DNA from: Candidatus Altimarinota bacterium
Lineage (GTDB): Bacteria; Patescibacteriota; Gracilibacteria; UBA1369
NCBI GenBank assembly: GCA_963677745.1
Contig: OY782391.1
Location: 476,482-540,481 of the forward strand
Reading direction: 5' to 3'
Length of the DNA stretch: 64,000 nucleotides
The stretch's first letter is position 1, and each line of letters opens with the position of its first letter. Below the pieces are notes generated by a model that worked only from the letters and a program-made list of their open reading frames with translations, made no database searches and was not told where the DNA came from. Shown in pieces: positions 12,240 through 53,145 of the stretch. Made by a program: the position numbers and the translations under genes.

Positions 12240-15080
12240 ATGAAAGAGCAACACCATTACGCTTATCAAAACATTTTTGAGACCTTTGACAGCAGTGAGC
12301 ACGGACTGGACTCCAACGAAGCCGATTTCCGGCAGAAAAAATACGGACCGAATCAGCTCACCGAAAAGAAAAAGAAACTCCTGATTTTGCGTTTTCTGGA
12401 AGAATACAAAGACCCCATGACCCTGCTGCTTCTTTGTGCCACGGTCGTTGCTTTTTTTTCGGGTGACAATACCGATGCCATCCTGATATTGATAGTGCTC
12501 ATACTTAACGGAGCTATCAGTTTTATTCAAAAATACAGGGCTGAAAAAGCCATCGAAGCCCTCAAGAAAATGGTTTCCCCACAAGCCAGGGTTTTTCGTA
12601 ATCGACAGCAGATACTTATTAATACGTCGGAAATCGTCCCGGGGGACGTAATTATAGTCAATGAAGGAGACAGTGTCCCGGCAGACGCCATTGTCTTTGC
12701 TTCCAATGAACTGCAGTGTTCGGAGGCAGTCCTCACCGGAGAATCTTTTCCGGTTACAAAAACTCCTTTTGATACGGTAGAAAAAGGCAATCTGACCACG
12801 GTTGAAAATATAATTTTCACCGGTACGACCATCGTTCGTGGCAACGGCAAAGCGCTGGTTATCAAAACGGGAATGGAAACCGAATTCGGGAAAATTGCCA
12901 ATTTAACACAGGAAACCGAGAAGGATGAAACCCCTCTGGAAAAAGAAATCCACAAGATTGGAATATTTGCCGCCCAGACCACCCTGATCATTATTTCTCT
13001 GATTTTCATCTTTGAACTGCTGGTTCATCAAAGAAGCATTCTCGACAATATTGTTTTTGCAACATCCATAGCCGTGGCAGCCGTACCGGAAGGGTTGCCG
13101 GCAGTCATCACTATTGCCCTGGCCTTGGGGGTACAGCGGCTATCCAGGAAAAAAGCCGTCATCAGACAGCTTTCCTCGGTGGAAACATTGGGAGCCACCA
13201 CAGTGATTTGTACGGATAAGACCGGAACGCTCACTAAAAACGAAATGACCGTAACGGAAGCTTTAATTGATGATTTTTACTTAACTTTCCAGGGTACGGG
13301 ATATGCTCCAAGCGGGAAATTCACGGTTTTCACCTCCAAGGAAGAAAAACTTGAGCTTGATCACAGCAAATTGACACCGGAATTCACCAGACAACATCTG
13401 ACCCTCACCAGTTCCCTGAAATGGTTCAGCCTCTGCGCCGAACTATGCAACAATTCCGACCTGGTTTTCAAAAATAATACCTACACAATTATTGGGGATC
13501 CAACCGAGGGCGGGTTGCTGGCTATGGCCAAAAAACTTTCCTCAAACCTGGATTCCGAGTTGAAAGAAAACCTGGAATTGCTGATGGAACTGCCTTTTGA
13601 TTCGGAAAGAAAAATGATGACCAAGATTTTTTTGGATAAAAAACACAATAAATATTTTTCTTTTACAAAAGGAGCTCCCGAACAAATCATCCAGGCGTCG
13701 GATCAGAGAATGCACGGTGGAAGAATGGCCATCCTGACCAAGAGCATCAAAGAAGAATTACTCCAGACCAACGACAAACTCAGCGATGAAGCGCTGCGTA
13801 CCATCGGATTGGCCTACAAAGAAATTTCCCCCTACGAAATAAACGACATTATCACCCAAAAATCCTTTGAGGAAAAACAACACCTGGTGGAAAGGAAGTT
13901 AACCTTCCTGGGTTTGGCCGGGCTGTCCGACCCGCCGCGCGAAGAAGTCAAAGAAGCAGTGGAAATGACCAAGATTGCCGGCATCAAAAGCTATATCATC
14001 ACCGGCGATAATGGCTTCACCACTGCGGCTATCGCCAAAAAAATCGGTATGATTTCGGAAAAACAGCATTATGAAATCATTACCGGCGAACAGCTGGACA
14101 AGCTTTCAGACCAGGAATTAAAAGAAAAATTTAAGAACAAGTCGCTCAACATTGTTTTCTCCCGAACCCGCCCCGAACATAAACTGCGGCTGGTTTCCCT
14201 GCTCAAAGAAAACGGCGAGGTAGTGGCGGTCACCGGCGACGGCGTAAATGACGCACCCGCCTTGAAAAGGGCGGATATCGGCGTGGCAATGGGGATAACC
14301 GGATCGGACGTCTCCAAACAAGCCTCCAACATGGTTCTAATGGATGACAGTTTCGGCACAATCGTCACTGCGATCAATGAAGGAAGAGTAATTTATGCCA
14401 ATCTTAAAAAGTTCATTTATTATATTTTTTCCTCCAATATCGGTGAGGTATTCACCATCTTTTTCAGTCTGATTATCGGTCTGGCAGCCCCTATTTCAGC
14501 CATCCTGATCCTGACTGTAAATCTTGTCACGGATCTCCTGCCGGCCCTGGCCCTGGGCGTGGAACCGGCGGAAAAAGACATTATGAAACAACCTCCCAGA
14601 AACCCGCATGACAAGATCATGAACCGCAGTTTCATTAAAAGAATTTTGATCACCGGATCGCTGATTGGAACAATCATTCTGGCACTTTATGCCTACCGGC
14701 TGTTTCTCGGCGGATGGACCTATGGCAGCCCGGTTCCCGATCAACTGCTGGAGGAAGCTTACAGCGTTACCTTCATTGCCATGGTAACGTTGCAGGTCAC
14801 CAATTCATTCAATGCCAAAACCAAAAACACCTCTATTTTCCGGATTAATCCGTTCAACAACTGGAAACTGATCTGGGCCAATCTTTCCTCCGTCCTGATA
14901 GCAGTGGCAATTATCGAAATACCCTTTCTACAGACCATTTTTCACACCCGTTCATTAAGTTTGAATGAATGGCTGCTCATTTTGGCCGGATGCGCGGCTC
15001 TCACGGTCATCACCGAAATTATCAAATTATTCAGCAGAAAAGATCTATCACCCCTGCAACCCGATGCTTCAAAAACTTAA
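12240..15080 (+). CDS. Cation-transporting P-type ATPase (type II, Ca2+/Mg2+-like)
   Basis: 946 aa. Contains the phosphorylation motif CTDKTGTLT, TGES, the hinge TGDGVNDAPALK.ADIGVAMG, and about 10 predicted TM segments. Confidence 0.88.
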   Translation: MKEQHHYAYQNIFETFDSSEHGLDSNEADFRQKKYGPNQLTEKKKKLLILRFLEEYKDPMTLLLLCATVVAFFSGDNTDAILILIVLILNGAISFIQKYRAEKAIEALKKMVSPQARVFRNRQQILINTSEIVPGDVIIVNEGDSVPADAIVFASNELQCSEAVLTGESFPVTKTPFDTVEKGNLTTVENIIFTGTTIVRGNGKALVIKTGMETEFGKIANLTQETEKDETPLEKEIHKIGIFAAQTTLIIISLIFIFELLVHQRSILDNIVFATSIAVAAVPEGLPAVITIALALGVQRLSRKKAVIRQLSSVETLGATTVICTDKTGTLTKNEMTVTEALIDDFYLTFQGTGYAPSGKFTVFTSKEEKLELDHSKLTPEFTRQHLTLTSSLKWFSLCAELCNNSDLVFKNNTYTIIGDPTEGGLLAMAKKLSSNLDSELKENLELLMELPFDSERKMMTKIFLDKKHNKYFSFTKGAPEQIIQASDQRMHGGRMAILTKSIKEELLQTNDKLSDEALRTIGLAYKEISPYEINDIITQKSFEEKQHLVERKLTFLGLAGLSDPPREEVKEAVEMTKIAGIKSYIITGDNGFTTAAIAKKIGMISEKQHYEIITGEQLDKLSDQELKEKFKNKSLNIVFSRTRPEHKLRLVSLLKENGEVVAVTGDGVNDAPALKRADIGVAMGITGSDVSKQASNMVLMDDSFGTIVTAINEGRVIYANLKKFIYYIFSSNIGEVFTIFFSLIIGLAAPISAILILTVNLVTDLLPALALGVEPAEKDIMKQPPRNPHDKIMNRSFIKRILITGSLIGTIILALYAYRLFLGGWTYGSPVPDQLLEEAYSVTFIAMVTLQVTNSFNAKTKNTSIFRINPFNNWKLIWANLSSVLIAVAIIEIPFLQTIFHTRSLSLNEWLLILAGCAALTVITEIIKLFSRKDLSPLQPDASKT

Positions 15081-22389: not shown

Positions 22390-24741
22390 ATGAAAATCAC
22401 CGCTAAATTGCTGGTTGTGATTCTGTTCGGGCAACTCCTCTTCGGATTGACCGCCCAGGCTGCCACTGCACCGGCTCTTTCCGCCCCACCCAACACTTTC
22501 ATTTATCTTGAGCTGAACACAGCCAAGAAAAATCCTCTACAGGGTAAACTGGCTACCATGATCAGGGAAAATGCTGCAGATACGGACAATCAGACCGTCC
22601 TGAACACTATTGCCGACAACATTGAAAACACTAACATCGGCTTCAGCCAGTCCTTCCACCAGACCGACGGTAGTGAAATTTATTTTCTCTCGGTAGCCCT
22701 GCCGGCAGAAGACTTTGACGCAATTATTAACGGAATGACAGATGAACTGCAGAAAAAAAATCTGGGGGGAAACAGAATGCTTTACCTGACCAGTGAAGAC
22801 TTCTTTTTTGCCTATAAAAACGGAAATTTAATTGCTTCCAACAAGGAAGGCATTCTGTCCGACCTGCTGATCCAGGAAAACATCAGTTCACTTCAACAAA
22901 ATCCGGATTGGCAATTTTTGCAGGGCAAAAGCAGCCCGGAAAGTTTTTTCAAAATGTTCATCAACTTTGAACAACTTCCGACAGACCTGACCACAGAACA
23001 GAACCCGGTTCTCGGTGAAATAAACCTCCAGGATATGGTTAAATCCGAAGGATTCAGCTTATTGCAAACCACCAACGGTTTGAATGGAATCGTGACTGTT
23101 AATCCCGGCTTCAAAACCAGCCTCAATCCCGCCAATTTGGCCTTCTCTCCCGAACTGTTCAAAAAAATCGATGCCTCCAACCTGCTTTTCTTTAGTGAAT
23201 CCAATAACCTGGCAACCAATCTGCAGGAAAGCATCAATACCCTCTCTCAACTGTCAACTGACTCCTCCCTGCCTTCACCGGCCGAAATTTACGACGAACT
23301 GTCCACGGCTATCGTGGAAATGACCGGACTGGATCCCGATACCGAAATTGCCCCGCTCTTCCGGAATAGAGCTGCTTTTGCCCTTCATTCGCAGGTCGGA
23401 CAACAATATTTTCCCGGAATCACGCTCATCTCAGAGGTCAAAGGACAGGAAACTCTGGCCAAATCAACTTTGGACAAATTACGAAACAAAATTCTGGCTT
23501 CAATCGAAGGAAATTTCAAGGCCACCTATGAGATGGAAGAATCCTATCAGCAAAGTCTGCTCGATTATGACTCCACCTACCAACCCACTCCGCTCCCGCC
23601 ACTGGCCGAACTGGAAAAACAGTTTTTTACCAGTACTTCCGTTACAGTAAACGGCACAACCTATGATCAAATCAGCTTCGATCCGGACGCTTCCAGCTAT
23701 TTCTATGCCAACGGAGAATACAAAAGCGACCCCAAAATGGTCACCACCATCTCCACAGCTGTTACCGGCGACGGTTTAATGATAATCAGCACGCAGAAAG
23801 ACCTCACTAAAACAATTTCAGCAAACAACAGCCTGTCAGCCGATCCGGAATGGCAGAAAAGTTATACCGGCGGACAGATGCTTGATCTCAGTTTCGTTAA
23901 CCTCATAAATATCAGCTCCTATATTAAATCTCTGGCCCTGGAAAGCGGCGCAACGGAGGAAGACATCAAGCCGGTTATGGATTTCATGGCACCACTGAAA
24001 AGTCTCTACGCCAGCAGCACCTATGAAAACGGTTATTATATAGGCAATCTCAAATTCAATTTTGACCTTAGTCAAATGTCCCAACTGATTTCGTCAGTCG
24101 AAAGTCTGGTCACATCGATGACCGACAGTTACAGCCGCGACTTTGGTTATGAGCCGATTGATTCCCTGGAACAGGGACTGGTGAAATCCTTTGGATTCAG
24201 CGACGTGGACGAAGGCGCCTGGTACGCCCACTATGTCAACACTCTTGCCTACATCGACATAATGAAAGGCTACGGAACCGAATTCCATCCGAATCAAAAC
24301 ATTACCCGGGCCGAGTTCGTAAAAACTCTGATGTCCGCCTATGATTACGCCGGATTCTATACAATCGACCAGCAACCGGCATCCAAATTCAAGGATGTCC
24401 CCGCAGACGCCTGGTTCGCACCTTATGTCAATCGCGCCACTGTTCTCTCCGTAATCAAAGGTTATTCTGACAACACTTTCCGGCCCAACCAGCCAATCAA
24501 CAGGGCTGAAGCCATGACCATGCTGATCAACTTGAGAAGAGCTTCCAACAGCCCGGATCCCGGCCTCAAAGAATTGCCGTTCACAGATGTCCCGCCAACC
24601 GACTGGTTTTATGGGGCGGTTCAAAAAGCGTTCAGCCTCAAATACGTCACCGGTAAGACCGCCACCGTCTTTGCCCCCTCCGATTACTTAACCAGGGCAG
24701 AGACAGCCGCCATCATTACCCGGTATCTTGATAATTACTAG
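22390..24741 (+). CDS. Secreted cell-surface protein with three C-terminal SLH domains
   Basis: 783 aa. Signal peptide MKITAKLLVVILFGQLLFGLTAQA. There are three consecutive SLH-like units from about 24196: FSDVDEGAWYAHYV..GYG..F.PNQNITRAEF, FKDVPADAWFAPYV..GYSDNTFRPNQPINRAEA, and FTDVPPTDWFYGAV..G...TVFAPSDYLTRAET. Confidence 0.8.
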   Translation: MKITAKLLVVILFGQLLFGLTAQAATAPALSAPPNTFIYLELNTAKKNPLQGKLATMIRENAADTDNQTVLNTIADNIENTNIGFSQSFHQTDGSEIYFLSVALPAEDFDAIINGMTDELQKKNLGGNRMLYLTSEDFFFAYKNGNLIASNKEGILSDLLIQENISSLQQNPDWQFLQGKSSPESFFKMFINFEQLPTDLTTEQNPVLGEINLQDMVKSEGFSLLQTTNGLNGIVTVNPGFKTSLNPANLAFSPELFKKIDASNLLFFSESNNLATNLQESINTLSQLSTDSSLPSPAEIYDELSTAIVEMTGLDPDTEIAPLFRNRAAFALHSQVGQQYFPGITLISEVKGQETLAKSTLDKLRNKILASIEGNFKATYEMEESYQQSLLDYDSTYQPTPLPPLAELEKQFFTSTSVTVNGTTYDQISFDPDASSYFYANGEYKSDPKMVTTISTAVTGDGLMIISTQKDLTKTISANNSLSADPEWQKSYTGGQMLDLSFVNLINISSYIKSLALESGATEEDIKPVMDFMAPLKSLYASSTYENGYYIGNLKFNFDLSQMSQLISSVESLVTSMTDSYSRDFGYEPIDSLEQGLVKSFGFSDVDEGAWYAHYVNTLAYIDIMKGYGTEFHPNQNITRAEFVKTLMSAYDYAGFYTIDQQPASKFKDVPADAWFAPYVNRATVLSVIKGYSDNTFRPNQPINRAEAMTMLINLRRASNSPDPGLKELPFTDVPPTDWFYGAVQKAFSLKYVTGKTATVFAPSDYLTRAETAAIITRYLDNY

Positions 24742-34878: not shown

Positions 34879-35263
34879 ATTTTGATGGAAACAGAATTAT
34901 AACAATATATAGACTATTTTCTCGGCGGCTCCAAGCCTTATTTTTGCCCGAAATAGCCTCGACCATTGACAACTTAAGAAAATATTGAAAAATCTTATTT
35001 TAGCTTTACTAATTTCAGTTTTAGTGTATAACTACTCTGGATCGGACTCCCTGGGGAGACCGACCGGATATTTGACATCTTGGCAACAAAACCAAGATAA
35101 ACAGAAGGAAAAATAGTATGTGCGGATTTGGCCAATTAGACCGGCCAGTCCGACAAGGATAAGAAGCCCTGACCAAACGAGTCAGTAAGGCGTTCCCTGT
35201 CTTAACCGACTGGGAGCAAAACCACAACCCTCAACCTTTTTCAAATCTGAGGAGGTGATGCCA

Positions 35264-35371
35264 ATGTGCAACACTGTGGTGAGCCGACGGTATCACCACG
35301 ACATCCGGAGTCTATGCGCTGGCCATCCCGGCAGCGCGGTCACGAAAATACGAGAGGAGAGATTTCCATGA
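35264..35371 (+). CDS. Candidate 35-codon upstream ORF translationally coupled to the giant gene
   Basis: GGAGG at 35251-35255 lies 8 nt before the ATG at 35264. My translation is MCNTVVSRRYHHDIRSLCAGHPGSAVTKIREERFP. Its TGA stop (35369-35371) overlaps the downstream ATG (35368-35370) as ATGA. Confidence 0.3.
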   Translation: MCNTVVSRRYHHDIRSLCAGHPGSAVTKIREERFP

Positions 35372-38300
35372 AATTGAAGAAGCGCGAATGGATGGCAGCG
35401 CTGATGATGGTAGCGCTGACAGGACTGGTCATGACCCAGGCGGGGTGTGAATCGGATCCCCCCACCAGCTGCGACCCGGACAGCCCCTGGTGCAACGACA
35501 ACACGGTGGACCCTGGGACCGGCGGATCGGCCGGCCACCAGAACACCTGCACCTACCCGGAGAAGCAGTGCGGCGGCAACTGCACCAACGTTCTGATCGA
35601 CAACCAGAACTGCGGAAGTTGCAACCTCACCTGCGGAACCGGCACCAACTGCCAGAACGGCGTCTGTGCCTATCAGTGTGTTCCGACCGGGCCCGAGACC
35701 TGCAACGGCAAGGACGACAACTGCGACGGCCACATCGACGAAGAACTCCTGAACCTGTGCGGAAGCTGCGGGGTAGCTCCTGCGGAGTCCTGCAACGGGA
35801 TCGACGACAACTGCAACGGCAGCGTCGACGAGGACTGCGAATGCCAGGGAGACGCGATCAAGCCCTGCGGCAGCAACCTCGGAACGTGCTCCACCGGCGT
35901 GCAGGAATGCATCAACGGCATCTGGAGCCTCTGCTCCGGTGTAGCTCCCGCGGTGGAGACCTGCGACGGGCTGGACAACAACTGCAACGGGCAAGTGGAT
36001 GAGAACCTGCTGAATGCCTGTGGCGGCTGTGGCATCGTCCAAGCCGAGCTCTGCGATGGCCAGGACAACAACTGCGACGGCCACATCGACGAAGGCTATC
36101 TCAATTCCTGCGGCGTGTGTGGACCCTTGCCATCAGAGAGCTGCAACGGCCTCGACGACAACTGCGACGGCATCGTCGACAACGGGCTCCTCAATGCCTG
36201 TGGAAATTGCGGTGCAACTCCGTCCGAGACCTGCAACGGGATCGACGACAACTGCAACGGGCAGGTGGACGAAGGACTCCGCAATCTCTGCGGAACCTGC
36301 GGTCCCCCTCCCGCCGAGATCTGCGACGGCGTCGACAACGACTGCAACGGAACCATCGACCAGGGATGTCCCTGCATGACGGGGCTGACCCAGCCCTGCG
36401 GTAAGGATCTGGGAGTCTGTACCTCGGGTACCCAGACCTGCGTCGGAGGAACCTGGGGAACGTGCTCCGGTACGCCCCCTGCTGTCGAAGTCTGCGACGA
36501 CGTGGACAACAACTGCGACGGGAATGTCGACGAAGGGCTGAAGAATGCCTGTGGAGGCTGTGGCCCGACTCCCGTCGAAGTCTGCAACGGCGCGGACGAC
36601 AACTGCAATGGCATCGCGGACGAAGGTCTGCTCAACCAGTGCGGCAACTGCGGGCCTCTGCCCGCCGAAGTCTGCAACGGCGCGGACGACAACTGCGACG
36701 GCATCATCGACAACGGATTGTTGAACCGCTGCGGCAACTGCGGGCCCCTGCCCGTGGAAACCTGCGACGGGAACGACAACGACTGTGACGGAATCGTGGA
36801 CAACGGCCTCCGCAACCTCTGCGGGAACTGCGGTCCCTCCGATCCTGACCTGTGCGATGGCGTCGACAATGACTGCGACGGCACTGTGGACCCGGGATGC
36901 CCCTGCATCACCGGTTTGACTGAGCCCTGCGGCAAAGATCTGGGAGTCTGTACCTCGGGTACCCAGACCTGCGTCGGAGGAACCTGGGGAACGTGCTCCG
37001 GTACGCCCCCTGCTGTCGAAGTCTGCGACGGAGTGGATAACAACTGCGACGGGAATGTCGACGAAGGGCTGAAGAATGCCTGTGGAGGCTGTGGCCCGAC
37101 CCCCGTCGAGATCTGTGATGGTGTCGACAACAACTGCAATGGCATCGCGGACGAAGGTCTGCTCAACCAGTGCGGCAACTGCGGCCCCCTGCCCGCCGAG
37201 ATCTGTGACGGGGTCGACAACAACTGCAACGGCATCATCGATGACAACCTTCGCAACCGCTGCGGCAACTGCGGGCCCCTGCCCGCCGAAGTCTGCGACG
37301 GCGTCGACAACGACTGCGATGGAACCATCGACAACGGATGTGGCTGCCAGACCGGAGCCACCATGCCCTGCGGCAAGAACCTGGGCACCTGCACCACCGG
37401 CCAGCAAGCCTGTGTGGCAGGACAGTGGACCCTTTGCTCCGGCACACCCCCCGCTGTCGAAGTCTGCGACGGCGTGGACAACAACTGCGACGGAAATGCC
37501 GACGAAGGCGTGAAGAACGCCTGCGGCGGGTGCGGCCCGACCCCCGCCGAGATCTGTGACGGGGTCGACAACAACTGCAACGGCATCATCGATGACAACC
37601 TTCGCAACCGCTGCGGCCTCTGCGGGCCCCTGCCCGCCGAAGTCTGCGACGGCGTCGACAACGACTGCGATGGAACCATCGACAACGGATGTGGCTGCCA
37701 GACCGGAGCCACCATGCCCTGCGGCAAGAACCTGGGCGCCTGCACCACCGGCCAGCAAACGTGTGTGGCAGGACAATGGTCACTCTGCAGCGGCGTCGAA
37801 GCGGTCTCCGAGACCTGCAACGGCGTCGATGACGACTGCGACGGTGACGTGGACGAAGGTCTGCGTAACCGCTGCGGCAACTGCGGAGCATTGCCGGCCG
37901 ATGTGTGCGACGGCGTCGACAACGACTGCGACGGCACCATCGACAACAACTGCCCCTGTCAGACGGGGGCATCCAAACCCTGCGGAACCGACACCGGTAT
38001 CTGCACAACCGGGACGCAGAATTGCGTTGCCGGACAATGGGGACTCTGCTCGGGCGTCGCGCCTGGAGTGGAGACCTGCGACGGACAAGACAACAATTGC
38101 AACGGGCTGAGCGACGAATACTTGCTCAATGCCTGCGGCAACTGCGGTCCGGTCCCCGCCGAAACCTGCAACGGCATCGACGACAACTGCAACGGGCAGA
38201 TCGACGAAGGCCTGCGCAACGCCTGCGGCAACTGCGGCCCCGCCCCGGCCGAGCTCTGCGACGGCGTGGACAACAACTGCGATGGAACCATCGACAACGG

Positions 38301-39279
38301 ATGTGGCTGCCAGACTGGAGCCACCAAGCCCTGCGGTACGAGCACCGGAGCCTGCACCACCGGAACACAGAACTGTGTCAGTGGACAGTGGAGCCTCTGC
38401 TCCGGCACCGAAGCGGTTCCCGAAACCTGCAACAACATCGATGACAACTGCGACGGTATCATCGACAACGGCCTGCGCAACGCCTGTGGCACCTGCGGTG
38501 CGCCACCGGTGGAGATCTGCGACGGCATCGACAACAACTGCGACGGGCATGTCGATGAGAACCTGCGCAACCGTTGCGGCAACTGCGGGCCCCTGCCTGC
38601 TGATGTCTGTGACGGCGTCGACAACGACTGCGACGGCACCATCGACAACAACTGCCCCTGCCAGGCCGGGGCGACCATGCCCTGCGGTACGGACATGGGA
38701 GCCTGCACCACAGGAACTCAGAGCTGCATCGCCGGTCATTGGGGACTTTGCAACGGCGTGGCCCCCACTCCCGAGACCTGCAACAACGTCGACGACAACT
38801 GCGACGGACACGTGGACGAGTTCCTCAGGAACGCCTGCGGTAACTGCGGAGTCATCCCCGCCGAGACCTGCAACGGCATCGACGACAACTGCAACGGGCA
38901 GATCGACGAAGGCCTGCGCAACCGCTGCGGCAACTGCGGGGCCCTCCCTGCTGATGTCTGCGACGGCGTCGACAACGACTGCGACGGCACGATCGACAAC
39001 GGCTGTTCCTGCCAGTCGGGAGCAATCCTGCCCTGCGGGAAGAACCTCGGAACGTGCTCCACCGGCAACCAGTTCTGCGTCGGTGGACAGTGGAGCCTCT
39101 GCAACGGCAACGGCCCCACGATCGAAGTCTGCGACGGCGCGGACAACAATTGCGACGGACTGGTCGACGAGTTCCTTCGCAATGACTGCGGAACCTGCGG
39201 TACCGTCCCCGCGGAGTTCTGCAGCGATGGTCTGGACAACAACTGCAACGGGCTGACCGACGAGCCCGGCTGCATCTGA
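35368..39279 (+). CDS. Giant secreted Cys/Asp-rich repeat protein (possible lipoprotein) carrying MopE-like CxGxDxxCxG-xxD putative metal/Ca-binding motifs
   Basis: About 1303 aa counted from the ATG at 35368, which is preceded by GAGAGGAGAG. The signal peptide is MKLKKREWMAALMMVALTGLVMTQAGC. By my count it holds 32 copies of C-[DN]-G-x-D-[DN]-[DN]-C-[DN]-G-x-x-D, linked by L-x-N-x-CG-x-CG-x-x-P-x-E, and 9 copies of a six-Cys module (C.C..G...PCG...G.C..G.Q.C..G.W..C.G). Confidence 0.8.
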   Translation: MKLKKREWMAALMMVALTGLVMTQAGCESDPPTSCDPDSPWCNDNTVDPGTGGSAGHQNTCTYPEKQCGGNCTNVLIDNQNCGSCNLTCGTGTNCQNGVCAYQCVPTGPETCNGKDDNCDGHIDEELLNLCGSCGVAPAESCNGIDDNCNGSVDEDCECQGDAIKPCGSNLGTCSTGVQECINGIWSLCSGVAPAVETCDGLDNNCNGQVDENLLNACGGCGIVQAELCDGQDNNCDGHIDEGYLNSCGVCGPLPSESCNGLDDNCDGIVDNGLLNACGNCGATPSETCNGIDDNCNGQVDEGLRNLCGTCGPPPAEICDGVDNDCNGTIDQGCPCMTGLTQPCGKDLGVCTSGTQTCVGGTWGTCSGTPPAVEVCDDVDNNCDGNVDEGLKNACGGCGPTPVEVCNGADDNCNGIADEGLLNQCGNCGPLPAEVCNGADDNCDGIIDNGLLNRCGNCGPLPVETCDGNDNDCDGIVDNGLRNLCGNCGPSDPDLCDGVDNDCDGTVDPGCPCITGLTEPCGKDLGVCTSGTQTCVGGTWGTCSGTPPAVEVCDGVDNNCDGNVDEGLKNACGGCGPTPVEICDGVDNNCNGIADEGLLNQCGNCGPLPAEICDGVDNNCNGIIDDNLRNRCGNCGPLPAEVCDGVDNDCDGTIDNGCGCQTGATMPCGKNLGTCTTGQQACVAGQWTLCSGTPPAVEVCDGVDNNCDGNADEGVKNACGGCGPTPAEICDGVDNNCNGIIDDNLRNRCGLCGPLPAEVCDGVDNDCDGTIDNGCGCQTGATMPCGKNLGACTTGQQTCVAGQWSLCSGVEAVSETCNGVDDDCDGDVDEGLRNRCGNCGALPADVCDGVDNDCDGTIDNNCPCQTGASKPCGTDTGICTTGTQNCVAGQWGLCSGVAPGVETCDGQDNNCNGLSDEYLLNACGNCGPVPAETCNGIDDNCNGQIDEGLRNACGNCGPAPAELCDGVDNNCDGTIDNGCGCQTGATKPCGTSTGACTTGTQNCVSGQWSLCSGTEAVPETCNNIDDNCDGIIDNGLRNACGTCGAPPVEICDGIDNNCDGHVDENLRNRCGNCGPLPADVCDGVDNDCDGTIDNNCPCQAGATMPCGTDMGACTTGTQSCIAGHWGLCNGVAPTPETCNNVDDNCDGHVDEFLRNACGNCGVIPAETCNGIDDNCNGQIDEGLRNRCGNCGALPADVCDGVDNDCDGTIDNGCSCQSGAILPCGKNLGTCSTGNQFCVGGQWSLCNGNGPTIEVCDGADNNCDGLVDEFLRNDCGTCGTVPAEFCSDGLDNNCNGLTDEPGCI
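36406..37290 (+). repeat. Near-identical direct duplication at a 531-nt offset
   Basis: About 36406-36760 versus about 36937-37290. The first roughly 95 nt (gatctgggagtctgtacctcgggtacccagacctgcgtcggaggaacctggggaacgtgctccggtacgccccctgctgtcgaagtctgcgacg) are identical. Scattered substitutions follow. Confidence 0.8.
37190..37766 (+). repeat. Near-identical direct duplication at a 351-nt offset
   Basis: About 37195-37410 versus about 37546-37761. About 215 nt are shared, with only a few substitutions visible (ggcaactgc versus ggcctctgc; ggcacctgc versus ggcgcctgc). Confidence 0.8.
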
Positions 39280-39504
39280 CCATCAACAAGAATCATCGTC
39301 GCGCGCCATTCGCCGCAGCGAATGGCATACCGGTTCCCCCACTGACGCAGCAGCAAGGGAGCCCTTCACCCCAAAACCCGCCCCGTCGCACTGAGACGTC
39401 GTCTCTCGCGACGGGGCACCGACCGTCGGCTGAAGCTTCTCCGGACTGACGAGCAGGATCTCACATCCCGCTCCTTCCGGACAGGCCACAGCCGCAAGAA
39501 CCAG

Positions 39505-39546
39505 AAAGGCCGCTCACCCGCGTCATACGCGGGTAGCGGCCTTTTT
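39505..39546 (+). terminator. Rho-independent terminator of the giant gene
   Basis: AAAGGCCGCT-c-ACCCGCG tcata CGCGGGT-AGCGGCCTTT forms about 17 bp with one bulge, followed by TT. Confidence 0.6.
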
Positions 39547-39567
39547 GCTGTCCGGATTTAATTTACA

Positions 39568-39605
39568 AAAAGCCCCCGCGATCACCTTGTGACGCGGGGG
39601 CTTTT
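39568..39605. terminator. Bidirectional hairpin terminator, best placed for the minus-strand SLH gene
   Basis: AAAA-GCCCCCGCG..CAC ctt GTG.CGCGGGGGC-TTTT. On the minus strand TTTTTG follows it, directly downstream of the stop at 39626. Confidence 0.65.
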
Positions 39606-39625
39606 CCATAAAGTATCACGCTATA

Positions 39626-40897
39626 TTAGATCTTTCCCAGATTATGCAGTTTGTATATCACTTCTGCCACTTCGCGGCGGGTAGTGAAATTGGTGGGATA
39701 CAATTTTGTCCCGCTGAACAAAGCGTTGTTTTTGGAATACTTGGCATAATCGGCATACCAGGCGTCCGCGGGCACATCGGTATAAGAAGTGCCGGTAGGC
39801 ATTATTTCTCCCAGATTGCGGAGCAGTAGAGCCAGGAACTCAGCCCTGTTCACCGATCTGGCCGGTCTGAAATACCCGGCATCGGGTCCGGACAGATAAC
39901 CGGTAACCACCGACAAAGCCTTGGCACGGCATACATACTGATAAGCCCAACTGGACTCGGTTACATCCGGAAAAGGATTGCTGCCGGCACAATAATCCGA
40001 TACCGAGTTGAAATTATCGAAAGTTTCCAAAGCAATTTTGGCAATCTGATCTCTCTGCAACAAACCTCCCGGATCAAAAGTGCCGTCGGGATTTCCGGTT
40101 ATGGCACCGATACTCTTTACATAGGAAATAGCGGCACAGTCACTGTCCACCAATGAAACGTCGGTAAAACCTGCACATTTAGTCAGGATTGGCGGAGTGT
40201 TGATGGTAAAAGAAGGAATAGTCAAAGCATCGCTCGTATTGCCGGACAGATCGGTTACCCTGACTTTACAATTACTGTAGGTGCCCGGAAGCATCGACTG
40301 GAACGTGACTGAGTTGTCCCCGCTCACCCCATTGGTAGTTGAACTGGAACAGGCTCCCTCATAAGTAATTGTCCCTGCTTCATTGGAGTTAAAAACTATG
40401 CCTGGAGTAGTATCGTCGGTCGGGCTACTCACTCCGCTCACCAGAGTCAGTGTGGGAGCGGTAATATCAATAATCATATTAACCTTGACCGTGAAGGCGG
40501 CAATATTCAAATTATCCGAAGTCAATCCGCTGACTGTGCCCTTCACGGTTAATTTGCAGTTTGTATGGGCTCCCAAGGCCAGAGAATTGAAAGTAATAGT
40601 ATTGTTTCCCGACACCGCGTTGACGGTTGCACTGGAACAGTCACCGGAATAGGTGATTGTTCCGGCCTGGGTGCTGGAAAAGGTAAAATCCGGAGTCTTG
40701 TCATAAGTTACAGCGGGAACAGGAGTAACCACGGCCAGAGTCGGAGCGACAAAAAGAGGTAACTGGGGATCAAAAGGAATTTCGGGAGTAATCGGATATG
40801 GATCGGGCAATTTTGCCATAGCCAACATCTGCATGGAAAAAACACCAATCAAAACCATCGACACCAGCGCTATCTTTTGGAAAGGGAATCTATTCAT
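39626..40897 (-). CDS. Secreted surface protein with two Ig-like repeats and three C-terminal SLH domains
   Basis: 423 aa. The signal peptide is MNRFPFQKIALVSMVLIGVFSMQMLAMA. The SLH-like units are FTDVSLVDSDCAAISYV..GAITGNPDGTFDP, FPDVTESSWAYQYV..GYLSG...YFRPARSVNRAEF, and YTDVPADAWYADYA......F.....TRREVA. Confidence 0.8.
   Translation of the reverse strand: MNRFPFQKIALVSMVLIGVFSMQMLAMAKLPDPYPITPEIPFDPQLPLFVAPTLAVVTPVPAVTYDKTPDFTFSSTQAGTITYSGDCSSATVNAVSGNNTITFNSLALGAHTNCKLTVKGTVSGLTSDNLNIAAFTVKVNMIIDITAPTLTLVSGVSSPTDDTTPGIVFNSNEAGTITYEGACSSSTTNGVSGDNSVTFQSMLPGTYSNCKVRVTDLSGNTSDALTIPSFTINTPPILTKCAGFTDVSLVDSDCAAISYVKSIGAITGNPDGTFDPGGLLQRDQIAKIALETFDNFNSVSDYCAGSNPFPDVTESSWAYQYVCRAKALSVVTGYLSGPDAGYFRPARSVNRAEFLALLLRNLGEIMPTGTSYTDVPADAWYADYAKYSKNNALFSGTKLYPTNFTTRREVAEVIYKLHNLGKI
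40193..40726 (-). repeat. Two tandem Ig-like modules of about 80-90 aa within the surface protein
   Basis: TPDFTFSSTQAGTITYSGDCSSATVNAVSGNNTITFNSLALGAHTNCKLTV aligns with TPGIVFNSNEAGTITYEGACSSSTTNGVSGDNSVTFQSMLPGTYSNCKVRV. Confidence 0.55.
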
Positions 40898-44828: not shown

Positions 44829-44905
44829 GAGCCCGTAGCTCAGCTGGATAGAGCGTTGGTTTGCGGAGCCAAAGGTCGTGCGTTCGACTCGCACCGGGCT
44901 CACCA
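44829..44905 (+). tRNA. tRNA-Arg, anticodon GCG, with encoded CCA
   Basis: I folded it by hand. The acceptor is GAGCCCG/CGGGCTC, the D arm is GCTC-AGCTGGATA-GAGC, and the anticodon arm is TTGGT-TTGCGGA-GCCAA (U33, G34 C35 G36, G37). The variable loop is AGGTC, the T arm is GTGCG-TTCGACT-CGCAC, the discriminator is A, and CCA follows. A20 and C35 fit arginine identity. Confidence 0.85.
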
Positions 44906-44922
44906 TGAAAAAATCATAATAA

Positions 44923-46407
44923 ATGTATAAAAAGACTTTTCTTCCGTTGTTGGTTGCTCTGACACTGACTGCCTGCCAGCAACCTTCCATCGCCCCCGAA
45001 CAGATTCAGCCGGAGGAGGAAGGACCGCCCCTTCTTACCGCTACCGTTCCCGGCGTCATCCCTCCGGAATTATTGGATCTGGCACCCGGTAAAGACGCTG
45101 AAGCTTTGATAATCGGCAATCTTCCGGATAGTCTGGTTCAATCGGTTACCGACGAAAACATCAAAGCACAATTACAAAAACTAAAGGGAGGTGTTTTGGT
45201 GACCAAAAAAGACCCCCTCAAGCCCGGACTGCCGTATGTCTGGTTGGGAATAGTATTTCGTGACGAAGCAGCCGCTCAGGAAGCCCTGGATTTTTATCAA
45301 AAAAGCAGTTTCATCTCATCTACCACCAAGGAACAGTTGGCCCTGGAAAGACAACAGAACCTCCTGGTCAGCAAAAAAGAAAATTCCGCCAGATTCCTTG
45401 GAAAATTGTCTGAACATTCGGAACTTTCAAAAATTACCGGCCTGACTCCCCAACCAATCTTCTTCGCCTACCAGAATTCGACGCGTATTCCCGAGCTCAA
45501 TCTGACCCTGAAGTCACAGTCCCCCATCCTGATCGATCCCTTGAACAATCCCGACCTAAGCGCGGTTTTCAACGCCGCCACCTTCTCGGCCAAAGAGCTG
45601 ACCACCCTCGGAGAATGGCAGGACAACCAACTCAAACTGACGGTCAAAGATGTTTTGATTTCCGACCAGAAAATACTGGGCAACCTGATGCTTTCCACAC
45701 TTTTCCCTGCCAACAACACCCAACCCGTAACCGAAGAACAAAAAACCTTCGTCTCCAGCACCGTCCAAAGCACCCTTGATGAATACAAGGAAGTTTACAC
45801 AAACAAACTGTCCGCTGTGAAAACCTTTATTGAGCAGAAAAATTCCGAATACCCGGAACTGATTTCCCTTCTGGATTTAAAACCGGCCCAGCTTGATCTA
45901 ACCTTGCTGGTAAAACCGCCGGCACTGGAAAATTTTTACGGGCAAATGGTTGCCGGATGGAATTACAATGAAAACAAAGCAAAGAACTACAATAAACAAA
46001 CCATCCTAAGCGACATCATGACCGCCCTGGACCAGTACCGGATACAAAACAACCGCTATCCCGAAAACGACGGCTGTCTGGAAAATGTTCTGGAAATCAA
46101 AACCTTCGTCAAAAACAATGTTATTCCCAAAGATCCCCAAGGTCCCCAGAAATTCGGAGACACTCTTTGCAAAAGCGGATTTTTACTGCAAAAAATCAAC
46201 GACGATAACTATATCCTCTGGGCAAAGACGGAAGGGGAAAAACAGGGTAACACCGAGTGGCCCGAAACTGACACAAGCGCCGGTAAAGGTAATTTCTATA
46301 TAATCAAATTGGAATATCTGCCTGCTTTGGAACAACCGCTGCTCGAAGAACCTCCTCTGGAAGAAGAAGTGATTCCCAATAAGCCCAAGGTGAAAAGACC
46401 TCTCTAG
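44923..46407 (+). CDS. Lipoprotein with a C-terminal pilin/pseudopilin-like globular domain
   Basis: 494 aa. The lipobox is LTLTAC. The C-terminal region (ILSDIMTALDQYRIQNNRYPENDGC...NNVIPKDPQG......C..GFLLQKINDDNYILWAKTEGE) resembles the globular domain of type IV pilin/GspG-like proteins. The class III signal peptide is absent. Confidence 0.55.
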   Translation: MYKKTFLPLLVALTLTACQQPSIAPEQIQPEEEGPPLLTATVPGVIPPELLDLAPGKDAEALIIGNLPDSLVQSVTDENIKAQLQKLKGGVLVTKKDPLKPGLPYVWLGIVFRDEAAAQEALDFYQKSSFISSTTKEQLALERQQNLLVSKKENSARFLGKLSEHSELSKITGLTPQPIFFAYQNSTRIPELNLTLKSQSPILIDPLNNPDLSAVFNAATFSAKELTTLGEWQDNQLKLTVKDVLISDQKILGNLMLSTLFPANNTQPVTEEQKTFVSSTVQSTLDEYKEVYTNKLSAVKTFIEQKNSEYPELISLLDLKPAQLDLTLLVKPPALENFYGQMVAGWNYNENKAKNYNKQTILSDIMTALDQYRIQNNRYPENDGCLENVLEIKTFVKNNVIPKDPQGPQKFGDTLCKSGFLLQKINDDNYILWAKTEGEKQGNTEWPETDTSAGKGNFYIIKLEYLPALEQPLLEEPPLEEEVIPNKPKVKRPL

Positions 46408-47573: not shown

Positions 47574-47659
47574 ATATTTTGTATTAAATTATGTTTCTAT
47601 ATATTATAACACCGAAAGTGGCTTGTTTGAAAGGACAAAAGCAATTACAGTCAATAGCG

Positions 47660-48598
47660 ATGAATGAAAACATAAATCTGCCAAAAATCTTCGGTGAATA
47701 TCTGGAAAAGCTTGGAACAAAAGCCAAAAACCTGGTAGTACTTGATTCAGATTTAAGTAACAATCTCCACACTCTCTATTTTGCCAAAGCCTTCCCCGAT
47801 CGGCATTTTTCCGTGGAAATGGCGGAAAGCAGCCTGCCCGGCTTGGCAGCCGGAATGACCGTCCGGAAAAAACTGCCTTTTATCTGCGCCGAAGCCCCGG
47901 CTCTGTTGGGTAAAAGCCTGGACATGATCAGAAATTGCATTGTCTCCCCCCATCTCAACCTAAAAATAATTCTTTCCACGGTCGGCTTGAGCCGTATTGA
48001 AGATGGCCTTGCCAAAACCTGCACCGAAGACCTCGCTATTCTAGGAGCACTTCCCAATATTAAAATATTTACCCCCGCCGACCAGTTTGAGCTGAGAGCG
48101 ATGATGGATTTCATGATTAATGATTTCGGACCGACGGTTCTGCGTATTCCCAGGCACTGCAGGGAAAATCTTCACGACAGCAATTGTGTCTTTCGTCCGG
48201 GACAACCGGAAATAGTAAAAAAAGGAGAACAAATCTGTCTTATTTCATCAGGGGCAATTCTGCACGAATGTCTAAGAGCCGCTATCGACCTCGAACACAA
48301 AGGCCTCTCCACCCAAGTCATCAATCTGTCTTCATTGAGACCCCTGGACTCGGAAAAACTGGCTGAACTCTGTCGGAACTGTGAACTGATCCTGACTGTG
48401 GAGGATCATAGTCTGCACGGCGGAATCGGCAGCAGGGTCTGTGAAATTATGCAACATTACGGAATTCCCAAAAAACTATTGAAATTGGGGCTGGATGGAT
48501 TGCCTGAATGCGGCAAATATCAGGAAATTCTTGGAAAATACGGTCTGGACGCCAAAAATATTTACGAAACAGTCCGTGAAAACTGGCTGAAAAATTAA
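47660..48598 (+). CDS. Transketolase, C-terminal (pyrimidine-binding and C-terminal domain) subunit
   Basis: About 312 aa from the ATG at 47660. It has the pattern of the split transketolase B subunit (FG..L..LG........D.DL, E..... GLAAGM, IF.PAD..E, R.PR). The track ORF starts at 47591. Confidence 0.85.
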   Translation: MNENINLPKIFGEYLEKLGTKAKNLVVLDSDLSNNLHTLYFAKAFPDRHFSVEMAESSLPGLAAGMTVRKKLPFICAEAPALLGKSLDMIRNCIVSPHLNLKIILSTVGLSRIEDGLAKTCTEDLAILGALPNIKIFTPADQFELRAMMDFMINDFGPTVLRIPRHCRENLHDSNCVFRPGQPEIVKKGEQICLISSGAILHECLRAAIDLEHKGLSTQVINLSSLRPLDSEKLAELCRNCELILTVEDHSLHGGIGSRVCEIMQHYGIPKKLLKLGLDGLPECGKYQEILGKYGLDAKNIYETVRENWLKN

Positions 48599-49733: not shown

Positions 49734-50585
49734 TTATTCGATTTTTTTCTCCAGTGAAGCAAGCGCCTCAGCCAACTCTTCGCGACTCAGCGGCTGATCG
49801 TGATAAAAACTTTTATTCTCGGCAAAATCCACCCCCTTGGCTTTGACCGTCTTGGCAATTATGGCAACCGGCAGACGGGTTTCCACTACAGCTTTCTCCA
49901 GGGCTCCCAGCAGCTGATCAAAATCATGGCCGGCAAAAACATTGATGGTGCGAAACCCGAAAGCCTCCAGTTTATCGGAAAGCGGATCGGCAATGTTAAG
50001 ATTTCTGACTATCCCGTCCTGTTGTATGCCATTTCTGTCCACCATCAGCACAAAGTTGCCCAGCTTGGCGTGTCCGGCCTCCAACAAAGACTCCCAGGCA
50101 GTGCCGTTAACCATCTCGGCATCGCCGGCCAGAACAAATACTTTGTTCCGGGAACGTTCTGCTTTGAGTGCCAGTGAAAGTCCGACTGCGCTGGCAATCC
50201 CCTGCCCGGCCAGACCAGCCGCCAGCGGTACACCGGGAATTTTCGATCTGGGCATGGCGGTAAGCAGAGCCCCGGTTGCCTTGAAATAATTAAGCTCATC
50301 AGCAGGAAAATAACCAAGATCGGCCAAAATGGCATACCAGGCCGGTGCCGCACCGGATTTTGACAGAACAAAATAATCCTGTTCCCCGGAATTGGGGTTG
50401 CCTGGGTCAATATTCAGAAGCGGACCGGAAGAAGTTTGCCCATAGTAAAGCGCGGTCAGCAGTTCCACGCAGGACAAAGCGCTTCCCACAGCCCCCGACT
50501 CGGCAGCGGTAATCATTTTGAGAGTTTCTATCCTGATTTCGGTGGCCTTCCTCCGCAGAGCGGCCAGATATTCCTGAAAAGACAT
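49734..50585 (-). CDS. Transketolase, N-terminal (TPP-binding) subunit
   Basis: 283 aa. Contains GA.GSALS..E....LY, LSKSGAAPA.YA.LA..G, GQG...AVG.ALA, GD.E..NG..WE, and L.N.V..VDRNG.Q.DG. Confidence 0.88.
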   Translation of the reverse strand: MSFQEYLAALRRKATEIRIETLKMITAAESGAVGSALSCVELLTALYYGQTSSGPLLNIDPGNPNSGEQDYFVLSKSGAAPAWYAILADLGYFPADELNYFKATGALLTAMPRSKIPGVPLAAGLAGQGIASAVGLSLALKAERSRNKVFVLAGDAEMVNGTAWESLLEAGHAKLGNFVLMVDRNGIQQDGIVRNLNIADPLSDKLEAFGFRTINVFAGHDFDQLLGALEKAVVETRLPVAIIAKTVKAKGVDFAENKSFYHDQPLSREELAEALASLEKKIE

Positions 50586-52575: not shown

Positions 52576-53145
52576 ATGAACTCGGTGAACGGAATTCATC
52601 ACAACGACGTGCTGTACGTTCTGCAGCTGATGGGAGACTATGTGCGGGCGGGCAAACGGCCCAAGCCCAGCCACCCGGTCTCGATCAGGCTCTGCAAGCT
52701 GATCATCAGCGCCAACGTCTTCACGCTCTATTGTGAAGAAGTCAAGATGCGACTGGATGTGCTACACAACAGGTACAGCGACCGGAACCCGGTCGGTCTG
52801 AAACACCAGCAAATGGAGGAGTTTCAGCTGGTATTGCCTCAATACGACCGGCTTCACTCCGTCGCCCACGGGCTGGACATGTGGGAAAGCATGAACCCCG
52901 AGACCTTCGGCGCCAATGCTTTGGAGCGGATCAATCAGCTCCGGCATCTGGACAGGAACGTCTTCCAGCTGCTCATCAACAAGGGACTGACCCGCGAGTT
53001 GGCAGAGGATGCTCTGATCTTTTCCGGCCGTGAGCTGATTGATCCGGAGATGACCTGCTACCGCGACGTCCCCACTGAGTCCAGCCTCTTGTCCCCCTCG
53101 AACAGCACCGGGAGCAAACGGGAAACCGACTGCTTCCGGCGCTGA
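52576..53145 (+). CDS. Hypothetical protein in a second high-GC islet
   Basis: 189-aa ORF preceded by GAGGAAGGG. Codons mostly end in G or C. Lines starting at 52621 and 52861 count 41/60 and 38/60 G+C. I recognise no family. Confidence 0.5.
   Translation: MNSVNGIHHNDVLYVLQLMGDYVRAGKRPKPSHPVSIRLCKLIISANVFTLYCEEVKMRLDVLHNRYSDRNPVGLKHQQMEEFQLVLPQYDRLHSVAHGLDMWESMNPETFGANALERINQLRHLDRNVFQLLINKGLTRELAEDALIFSGRELIDPEMTCYRDVPTESSLLSPSNSTGSKRETDCFRR

Follow-up and report, generated by a model that had tools for sequence, protein, structure and literature searches.

Anantharaman et al. described in 2016 about twenty large extracellular proteins of Peregrinibacteria that are rich in cysteine, carry signal peptides and vary between strains, that have weak similarity to the cysteine-rich repeat proteins of Myxococcus, and for which a role in attachment was proposed (PMC4736985). 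The present work concerns a gene from the same broad lineage as Candidatus Peribacter riflensis, one of the sources of those proteins. It lies at 35368-39279 on the plus strand of a stretch of 64,000 nucleotides of contig OY782391.1 (called here the window), and encodes a protein of 1303 amino acids (aa) built of a Stig1-like head followed by pure repeat. This protein has the traits of the 2016 proteins, namely a host from the Candidate Phyla Radiation (CPR), a signal peptide, large size and a high content of Cys. Compared by description, the Peregrinibacteria proteins average 7% Cys in genomes of 58% GC, whereas the window protein has 13.4% Cys and is encoded in a GC-rich island of a genome of 47% GC.

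The closest relatives by sequence are the repeat proteins of Pfam family PF11617 (Cu-binding_MopE). Members such as P0002, from a Myxococcota metagenome-assembled genome, likewise have a CxGxDNDCDGxxDE loop, CGxCG linkers and CxCxxG...GxWGxC modules in tens of copies, and many begin with lipoprotein-type signals. The identity of the window protein to such proteins is at best 40-43%, and its loops are richer in Asn. It also lacks the TIG, VWA, OmpA, FGE-sulfatase and MYXO-CTERM additions, and, in contrast with the Myxococcota proteins, its host is a CPR bacterium with a genome of 1.34 Mb.

Three better characterized systems offer partial comparisons. The cysteine-rich domain of teneurins (human Teneurin-4 residues 834-871) has a core acidic loop, ExC-D-x-x-DND-x-DG-x-x-D, that was aligned with PF11617 (PMC3278476), and the last unit of the window protein, CSDGLDNNCNGLTDE, has the teneurin spacing. 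In teneurin, however, the domain occurs only once, with six Cys and a CxDxDCC tail, whereas the window protein has 32 copies, in which a Cys lies within the loop, and other spacers. Thrombospondin type 3 repeats and LDL-receptor class A (LDL-A) modules are likewise short, disulfide-held tandem Ca2+ loops rich in Asp and Asn with little secondary structure, but neither has a Pfam match at E<=1 in the window protein and their Cys spacing differs. Finally, MopE/CorA of methanotrophs shares only the short motif behind the name of PF11617; the MopE core is unmatched, and a His/Trp copper site is lacking.

From the analysis given below we consider it probable, with some reserve, that the gene encodes a secreted, lipid-anchored surface stalk of a CPR bacterium, stiffened by Ca2+ and disulfides and serving attachment.

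An intact gene for a modular PF11617 repeat protein

The gene is one intact open reading frame (ORF) of 1303 codons, whose ATG is found 8 nt 3' of GAGAGGAG. The coding features are the following.

35368-39279, plus strand: coding sequence of the 1303-aa repeat protein (ORF, translation, Pfam, motif parse).
35368-35448, plus strand: signal peptide, aa 1-26 (MKLKKRE, 15 hydrophobic residues and TQAG), and Cys27, a candidate lipid-attachment residue (translation).
35488-35673, plus strand: Stig1-like cysteine-rich domain, aa 41-102 (Pfam PF04885).
35701-39276, plus strand: repeat body, aa 112-1303, with 32 PF11617 motifs, 22 CGxCG linkers and nine six-Cys modules (Pfam, periodicity, motif parse).

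PF11617, the family to which the initial annotation had referred the short motif, matches the protein in 32 stretches (E 1e-141, 461.1 bits, above the gathering cut-off of 27), and it is the only Pfam family found at E<=1 when the whole protein is scanned; an NCBIfam scan of the full-length protein gave no match. The initial annotation, made from the sequence alone, had counted 32 short motifs in runs of 2, 5, 5, 4, 3, 2, 3, 3, 3 and 2, separated by nine six-Cys modules. Pfam and the parse of the translation give the same 32 motifs, the runs agree exactly, and the nine modules (starting at aa 157, 334, 511, 658, 775, 862, 979, 1096 and 1213) comprise eight strict copies and one variant at aa 157. 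The motif pattern as literally written was too narrow, with 24 matches only; a relaxed pattern finds 31, to which the C-terminal variant is added. A linker had been placed after every motif, but LxNxCGxCG follows only 22 of the 32, since nine motifs are joined directly to a six-Cys module and one lies at the end. The Cys content, put at about 190 residues or 15%, is in fact 175 residues, or 13.4%.

The basic unit is a 15-aa loop, CxGxDxxCxGxxDxG, after which comes a linker of 15 aa or a six-Cys module of 42 aa, and this accounts for the periods of 90 and 351 bp in the DNA of the gene. In the last third of the repeat body these elements form a super-repeat of 117 aa (351 bp). Each short unit has four Cys, including the CGxCG knuckle, and each six-Cys module has one Trp. 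The protein is strongly acidic, with 202 Asp and Glu against 34 Lys and Arg (net charge about -168), and has only six His (aa 57, 122, 239, 1061, 1124 and 1148), none of them at a conserved repeat position.

Repeat copies are 60-75% identical in DNA, with many synonymous differences. The only recent pair, at aa 334 and 511, is 93% identical and differs at 10 synonymous and 4 non-synonymous codons. Furthermore, the sequence of the window from uvrB into the gene is reproduced exactly by two independent assemblies of short reads, over 34879-35818 and 34879-35723, each of which then breaks inside the repeats. The divergence of the copies and the agreement of the two assemblies show that the gene is neither a chance reading frame nor an assembly artefact, a concern raised in the initial annotation. 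The long antisense ORFs that an ORF finder lists within the gene are a by-product of its GC-rich repeats. An exact look-up did not find the repeat protein in the protein collection, where all the neighbouring proteins that were checked are present.

The repeat protein is a member of a large, named family and is in itself ordinary for its clade. At least 3165 homologs are found at E<=1e-10, the best of them only 43% identical, under names such as 'MopE-related protein' and 'putative metal-binding motif-containing protein'. Besides Myxococcota and Deltaproteobacteria, their sources include Falkowbacteria and other Patescibacteria, and their loops, CGxCG linkers and six-Cys modules are the same. 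The six-Cys module occurs 713 times in 127 of these proteins. A profile of it, run against 1.84 billion proteins, retrieved 4279 cluster representatives at E<=0.001, of which 1489 reach E<=1e-10, the largest proteins having up to 49 copies and up to 4808 aa, and yet the isolated module has no Pfam match even at E<=10. It merits a family model of its own.

The Asp/Asn loops and their cysteines

Positions 2 and 6 of the loop always hold one Asp and one Asn in the window protein, 20 loops being D,N and 11 N,D. Among 1997 loops of homologs we counted 1242 D,N, 723 N,D, 32 D,D and no N,N, with the qualification that loops related by duplication are not independent in this count. That N,N is missing altogether from so many proteins and phyla indicates what are probably two adjacent, interchangeable ligands with a fixed charge. 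The number of acidic residues per loop is 3 to 5 in the window protein (mode 4), while the mode in homologs is 5, the window loops being the more Asn-rich. The net charge of the whole protein implies that bound cations or counter-ions are needed.

The initial annotation had remarked on a likeness to the Ca2+-binding loops of thrombospondin type 3 and LDL-A. No EGF or LDL-A match was obtained in the Pfam check that it had suggested, but the likeness itself has published backing through the teneurin domain. Tucker et al. aligned PF11617 with the cysteine-rich core of teneurins (PMC3278476), and Meijer et al. showed that this domain binds three Ca2+ via the corresponding Asp and Asn residues and has three disulfides, with a coordination resembling that of thrombospondin type 3 repeats and LDL-A modules (PMC9058538). 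The residues of the teneurin loop, C-x-D-x-x-D-N-D-x-D-G-x-x-D, are present in the window protein, although teneurin was not retrieved by profile or fold searches.

The cysteines provide a second line of evidence. In the homolog P0001 the Cys that opens the loop and the one that opens the CxC after it have both gone, with W and Y/F in their places. Such a paired loss is the signature of a disulfide pair and not of a four-Cys metal cluster. Statistics of Cys co-absence over the 713 module instances are confounded by alignment shifts, and only the clear case of P0001 is used here. The exclusive Asp/Asn pair and the paired loss of Cys fit a putative, defined cation site stapled by disulfides.

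An alternative use of these cysteines would be as metal-thiolate ligands, each 30-aa unit (C..C plus CxxC) forming a Zn or Fe(Cys)4 knuckle. Such a protein would suit an anaerobic host with no respiratory chain, each short unit has the four Cys required, CGxCG knuckle included, the window has no oxidoreductase gene, and the only profile matches in the PDB, non-significant, are zinc-ribbon ribosomal proteins (E 0.4). Against it, P0001 loses two Cys together and keeps the rest of the unit, the parity of the Cys count fits full pairing (see below), and the homologous region of teneurin is disulfide-bonded (PMC9058538). Moreover, a VKOR-family gene is found at L086:16317-16850 (minus strand), 1.2 kb downstream of the MopE-repeat gene of that CPR-like contig, and a disulfide-formation protein has been reported in Peribacteria (PMC4736985). 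We regard the thiolate alternative as unlikely.

The name of the family suggests a protein that binds or scavenges copper as MopE/CorA does in methanotrophs, and the repeat protein, extracellular and with many potential ligands, could seem suited to that function. In the MopE* structure of Helland et al. 2008, the copper site is said to be made of two His and an oxidised Trp. Such a site has no counterpart in the window protein, where none of the six His belongs to the repeat consensus. Neither the protein nor its repeat profiles matched any PDB chain, MopE included, at E<=1-10, and no further Pfam or NCBIfam domain is present in the full-length protein. Furthermore, PF11617 covers only a small region of MopE/CorA and has no specificity for these proteins (PMC6189053). 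Metal scavenging, one of the functions first considered for the gene, thus appears highly improbable in the MopE sense.

An AlphaFold2 model of one super-repeat (aa 902-1050, 149 aa, from an alignment of 30 rows) has a mean predicted local distance difference test score (pLDDT) of 90.5 and a predicted template modelling score of 0.52. It is nearly devoid of regular secondary structure, with the exception of a hairpin in the six-Cys module, as would be expected for a flexible string of small knotted modules. With a shorter construct, of 76 aa, the model was poorer (pLDDT 67.7).

The N-terminus and the proposed surface stalk

A signal peptide ending in AGC had been noted at the outset and is plainly seen in the translation. 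Three observations favor lipidation of the Cys that follows it. A lipobox-like signal is present in 54 of 111 full-length homologs; the start of the mature protein, GCESDP, is common to the window protein and to secreted neighbour proteins in L086; and the Cys count is odd, 175 being Cys27 plus 174, so that the remainder can all pair. From these data Cys27 is probably lipidated. The Stig1-like domain that comes next scores 39.8 bits with PF04885 (gathering cut-off 24.1, E 6.3e-10) in a scan restricted to aa 26-111, and is not reported in the scan of the whole protein. The N-terminal domain is 45% identical (E 2e-16) to that of P0008, the syntenic ortholog in L085.

We infer from all of this a surface stalk in which Ca2+ is the ligand, the Cys form disulfides, the N-terminus is lipidated, the shape is that of a rod and the role is adhesive. 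After export, the protein would be held in the membrane by the lipid on Cys27. From the membrane outward there would come the Stig1-like domain and then the 32 CxGxDxxCxGxxD(E) loops, spaced by the 22 linkers and the nine six-Cys hairpin modules. Each short loop would be a Ca2+ site as in the teneurin domain, with coordination of the thrombospondin type 3 and LDL-A kind, and the 174 remaining Cys would form about 87 disulfides stapling loops and spacers. The outcome would be a long, protease-resistant, Ca2+-stiffened stalk that passes through an envelope of SLH/S-layer type and attaches the cell to a partner cell or to a surface.

Several observations weigh against this proposal. The Asn-rich loops of the window protein could bind cations more weakly. 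Whether the query was the complete protein, the unit of 32 columns, the loop of 18 columns or the six-Cys module, PDB searches found nothing significant, the best profile matches being the zinc-ribbon protein S27ae (E 0.4) and the sea-anemone toxin APETx1 (E 0.068), and Foldseek searches of the PDB with the 149-aa and 76-aa models returned only noise. Since solved structures are unmatched by sequence, profile and fold, the Ca2+ analogy depends on a short motif alignment in the literature. The end of the signal, T-Q-A-G-C, has Gln at -3 and falls outside the usual lipobox, [LVI][ASTVI][GAS]C. A VKOR or Dsb gene was not found in the window, either by tblastn with the VKOR of L086 or by Pfam scans of the window proteins. 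As far as the literature shows, no member of the family has a tested function.

The locus in CPR genomes and its GC-rich island

The SecY protein of the window is closest, at 65-68% identity, to proteins recorded under the names Candidatus Gracilibacteria, Candidatus Peregrinibacteria and Patescibacteria group, which identifies the host as a CPR bacterium (Patescibacteria, probably Peregrinibacteria/Gracilibacteria-like) with a small genome. The reduced genome supposed in the initial annotation is borne out by the record of the neighbouring proteins on a contig of 1,337,126 bp. Two near-complete contigs exist, of 1,337,126 and 1,335,835 bp, which differ in size by 1,291 bp.

The last part of the ribosomal protein operon (SecY, Adk, Map, RpoA) falls within the window. 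Also encoded there are a P-type cation ATPase and a DinG-like helicase, signal peptidase I and a PBP2-like transpeptidase, a pilin-like protein, two proteins with SLH domains, and transporters of the MacB/HlyD type. The repeat gene is solitary, with uvrB divergent upstream and an SLH-domain gene convergent downstream. The envelope-related genes are the following.

22390-24741, plus strand, and 39626-40897, minus strand: SLH-domain proteins.
44923-46407, plus strand: 494-aa protein with a weak T2SS-G/pilin-like region.

One SLH-domain gene lies directly downstream of the repeat gene and the other 11 kb upstream; both are syntenic in L085, which suggests an envelope of S-layer type. These neighbours raise the alternative that the repeat protein is a structural component of the envelope, an S-layer-associated spacer or scaffold, and not an adhesin. 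Its repetitive and presumably rod-like build and the want of a recognisable ligand-binding end domain other than the Stig1-like one would agree with this, and long structured untranslated regions (UTRs) are compatible with an abundant, stable mRNA. However, Pfam finds no SLH or other wall-binding domain in the repeat protein, and the neighbours are convergent or divergent and not operonic. In addition, the repeat body is 33% identical between the syntenic orthologs where UvrB is 79% identical, fitting a variable, exposed protein. A scaffold seems to us unlikely, though less so than the other alternatives to the attachment stalk.

The order of genes in L085 (GCA_964424075.1) is that of the window: SLH, DinG-like, LemA, DUF2207, UvrB (minus strand), the MopE-repeat gene (plus), SLH (minus) and DUF4112 (minus). 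DinG is 50% identical between the two. The initial annotation held that such a protein would be unusual in a reduced-genome bacterium. This view does not stand, because the equivalent locus of a related CPR genome holds an ortholog and such genes occupy two further conserved loci in other CPR lineages. One of these, common to L086 and L089, has the order trigger factor, L19, RNase HII, PS_pyruv_trans, x, MopE; the other, common to L083 and the Falkowbacteria contig L087, has MopE, radical SAM, Wzy_C and glycosyltransferases. With the Peregrinibacteria proteins of 2016 (PMC4736985), these loci make the protein largely ordinary for the clade, which the initial annotation had named as an outcome that would undo its claim. 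Directly after the MopE-repeat gene of L089, at 12287-13021 (plus strand), there is a gene for a 244-aa protein with four CxDGxDNDxDGxxDCxDxxC units, in which the acidic loop has teneurin-type spacing; it may be a frameshifted continuation of the L089 MopE-repeat gene.

The repeat gene and its flanks form a transcription unit that stands out in composition from the rest of the window.

35005-35032, plus strand: promoter-like site, TTTACT, 16-nt spacer and TATAAC with TG before it (sequence reading).
35040-35367, plus strand: presumed long 5' UTR, placed between the conserved promoter block and the ATG, with a ribosome-binding site, GAGAGGAG, at 35352-35359.
39280-39560, plus strand: GC-rich, highly structured 3' UTR with a terminator hairpin and T-run at about 39505-39556 (minimum free energy, terminator-like site).
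35150-39530, no strand: compositional island of 60-69% GC amid 45-49% GC (GC profile).

Between the intergenic regions of the window and L085, the only well-conserved stretch is TTTAC..TGTGTATAACTA. The 5' UTR of the window folds with -112 kcal/mol against -90.7 for shuffled sequences (z -4.3), and the 3' UTR with a minimum free energy of -136.9 against -90.4 kcal/mol (z -9.6); the UTRs of L085 are also structured (z -2.4 for the 5' and -6.4 for the 3'). A search of both window UTRs with Rfam found nothing above noise, the matches at 39490-39610 being terminator look-alikes far below gathering scores. An upstream ORF of 38 aa at 35255-35371 (plus strand), whose stop and the start codon of the gene overlap in ATGA, has no conserved counterpart in L085 and is probably due to chance.

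The repeat gene has 63.7% GC and a GC content at third codon positions (GC3) of 0.81, while the other genes of the window, with one exception, are between 0.44 and 0.63. As the excess is at third positions, amino-acid composition is not its cause. The same comparison in other contigs gives the following values.

Window: gene GC3 0.81; neighbour GC3 about 0.5.
L085 (syntenic ortholog): gene GC3 0.73; host/neighbour GC3 0.28-0.36; island L085:10001-16345.
L086: gene GC3 0.76; host/neighbour GC3 0.37-0.45; island L086:8411-15474.
L089: gene GC3 0.75; host/neighbour GC3 0.30-0.45; island L089:6818-13021.
L087 (Falkowbacteria): gene GC3 0.40; host/neighbour GC3 about 0.30.
L084 (Myxococcota): gene GC3 0.75, gene 62% GC; flanks 59-61% GC.

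In the window, L085, L086 and L089 the MopE-repeat unit has about 63% GC and a GC3 of 0.73-0.81 within CPR genomes of 38-47% GC. In L086 and L089 the island takes in the gene just upstream, and in L089 also a short gene downstream; the GC-rich genes beside these homologs have no informative family matches and no clear similarity to each other.

One explanation of such an island would be a foreign gene, which would tell little about the biology of the host, recently transferred from a GC-rich donor (for example a member of Myxococcota, where the family is richest and gene GC equals genome GC) or brought in by a mis-binned or chimeric assembly. The composition of the gene, its GC-rich non-coding flanks and a codon set like that of a GC-rich genome and unlike that of the host ribosomal-protein genes all speak for it. 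Recent transfer is, however, hard to reconcile with the ortholog of L085, which occupies the same locus beside a UvrB of 79% identity, in a host with GC3 0.32, and which keeps the promoter block and an orthologous N-terminal domain. The GC excess recurs at other conserved CPR loci, the uvrB-gene junction is exact in the two short-read assemblies, and with the best homolog 43% identical no donor is identifiable. A foreign origin is very unlikely in our judgement.

A different possibility, which we put forward tentatively and to which we give somewhat less than an even chance, is that several CPR genomes of low GC actively maintain a high GC content across the whole transcription unit (5' UTR, coding sequence and 3' UTR), the hosts of the syntenic pair having GC3 of 0.53 and 0.32. 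If true, the GC pattern would reflect a gene-specific force and not a relic of transfer. Selection for a stable, structured mRNA, a recombination hot spot with GC-biased conversion and recurrent allele replacement at a surface-protein locus are possible causes. Two other causes were rejected. The repeat gene uses AAG, CAG and CGC and never AGA or TTA, whereas the ribosomal-protein genes of the window keep AAA and AGA, so that translational selection for a codon set preferred by the host is not the reason. Homogenisation of the repeats is excluded because they differ at many synonymous sites.

Some further features of the window were observed. A tRNA-Arg with anticodon GCG lies at 44829-44905 (plus strand; ARAGORN), and CGC makes up 83% of the Arg codons of the repeat gene; bacteria usually decode CGY by an ACG (inosine) tRNA. 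A second compositional outlier is a 189-aa ORF at 52576-53145 (plus strand; 57.7% GC, GC3 0.795) that matches nothing in Pfam or NCBIfam. Over the whole 64 kb the GC skew is negative, with a cumulative value of -3.7, and third positions are C-rich in plus-strand genes (0.28-0.44) and G-rich in minus-strand genes (0.22-0.35). The P-type cation ATPase, with Cation_ATPase_N and _C domains, is encoded at 12240-15080 (plus strand), 20 kb from the gene of the putative Ca2+-binding protein; this domain type includes Ca2+ pumps. Transketolase is split into N- and C-terminal genes on opposite strands, at 47591-48598 (plus) and 49734-50585 (minus), adjoining the genes for ribose-5-phosphate isomerase B and ribulose-phosphate 3-epimerase.

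The PF11617-type family comprises thousands of protein clusters, with members of up to about 4800 aa, and the analysis of this locus provides usable handles on it: the coupled Asp/Asn pair, a probable cation site; the paired loss of Cys, pointing to one disulfide; and a super-repeat of 149 aa that is modelled with confidence. GC-rich islands with structured UTRs could mislead binning and screens for horizontal transfer in CPR genomes. In CPR bacteria, which have very few genes and spend their lives fixed to other cells, a gene of 3.9 kb that persists at a conserved locus is consequently a candidate means of holding on to a host or a surface.

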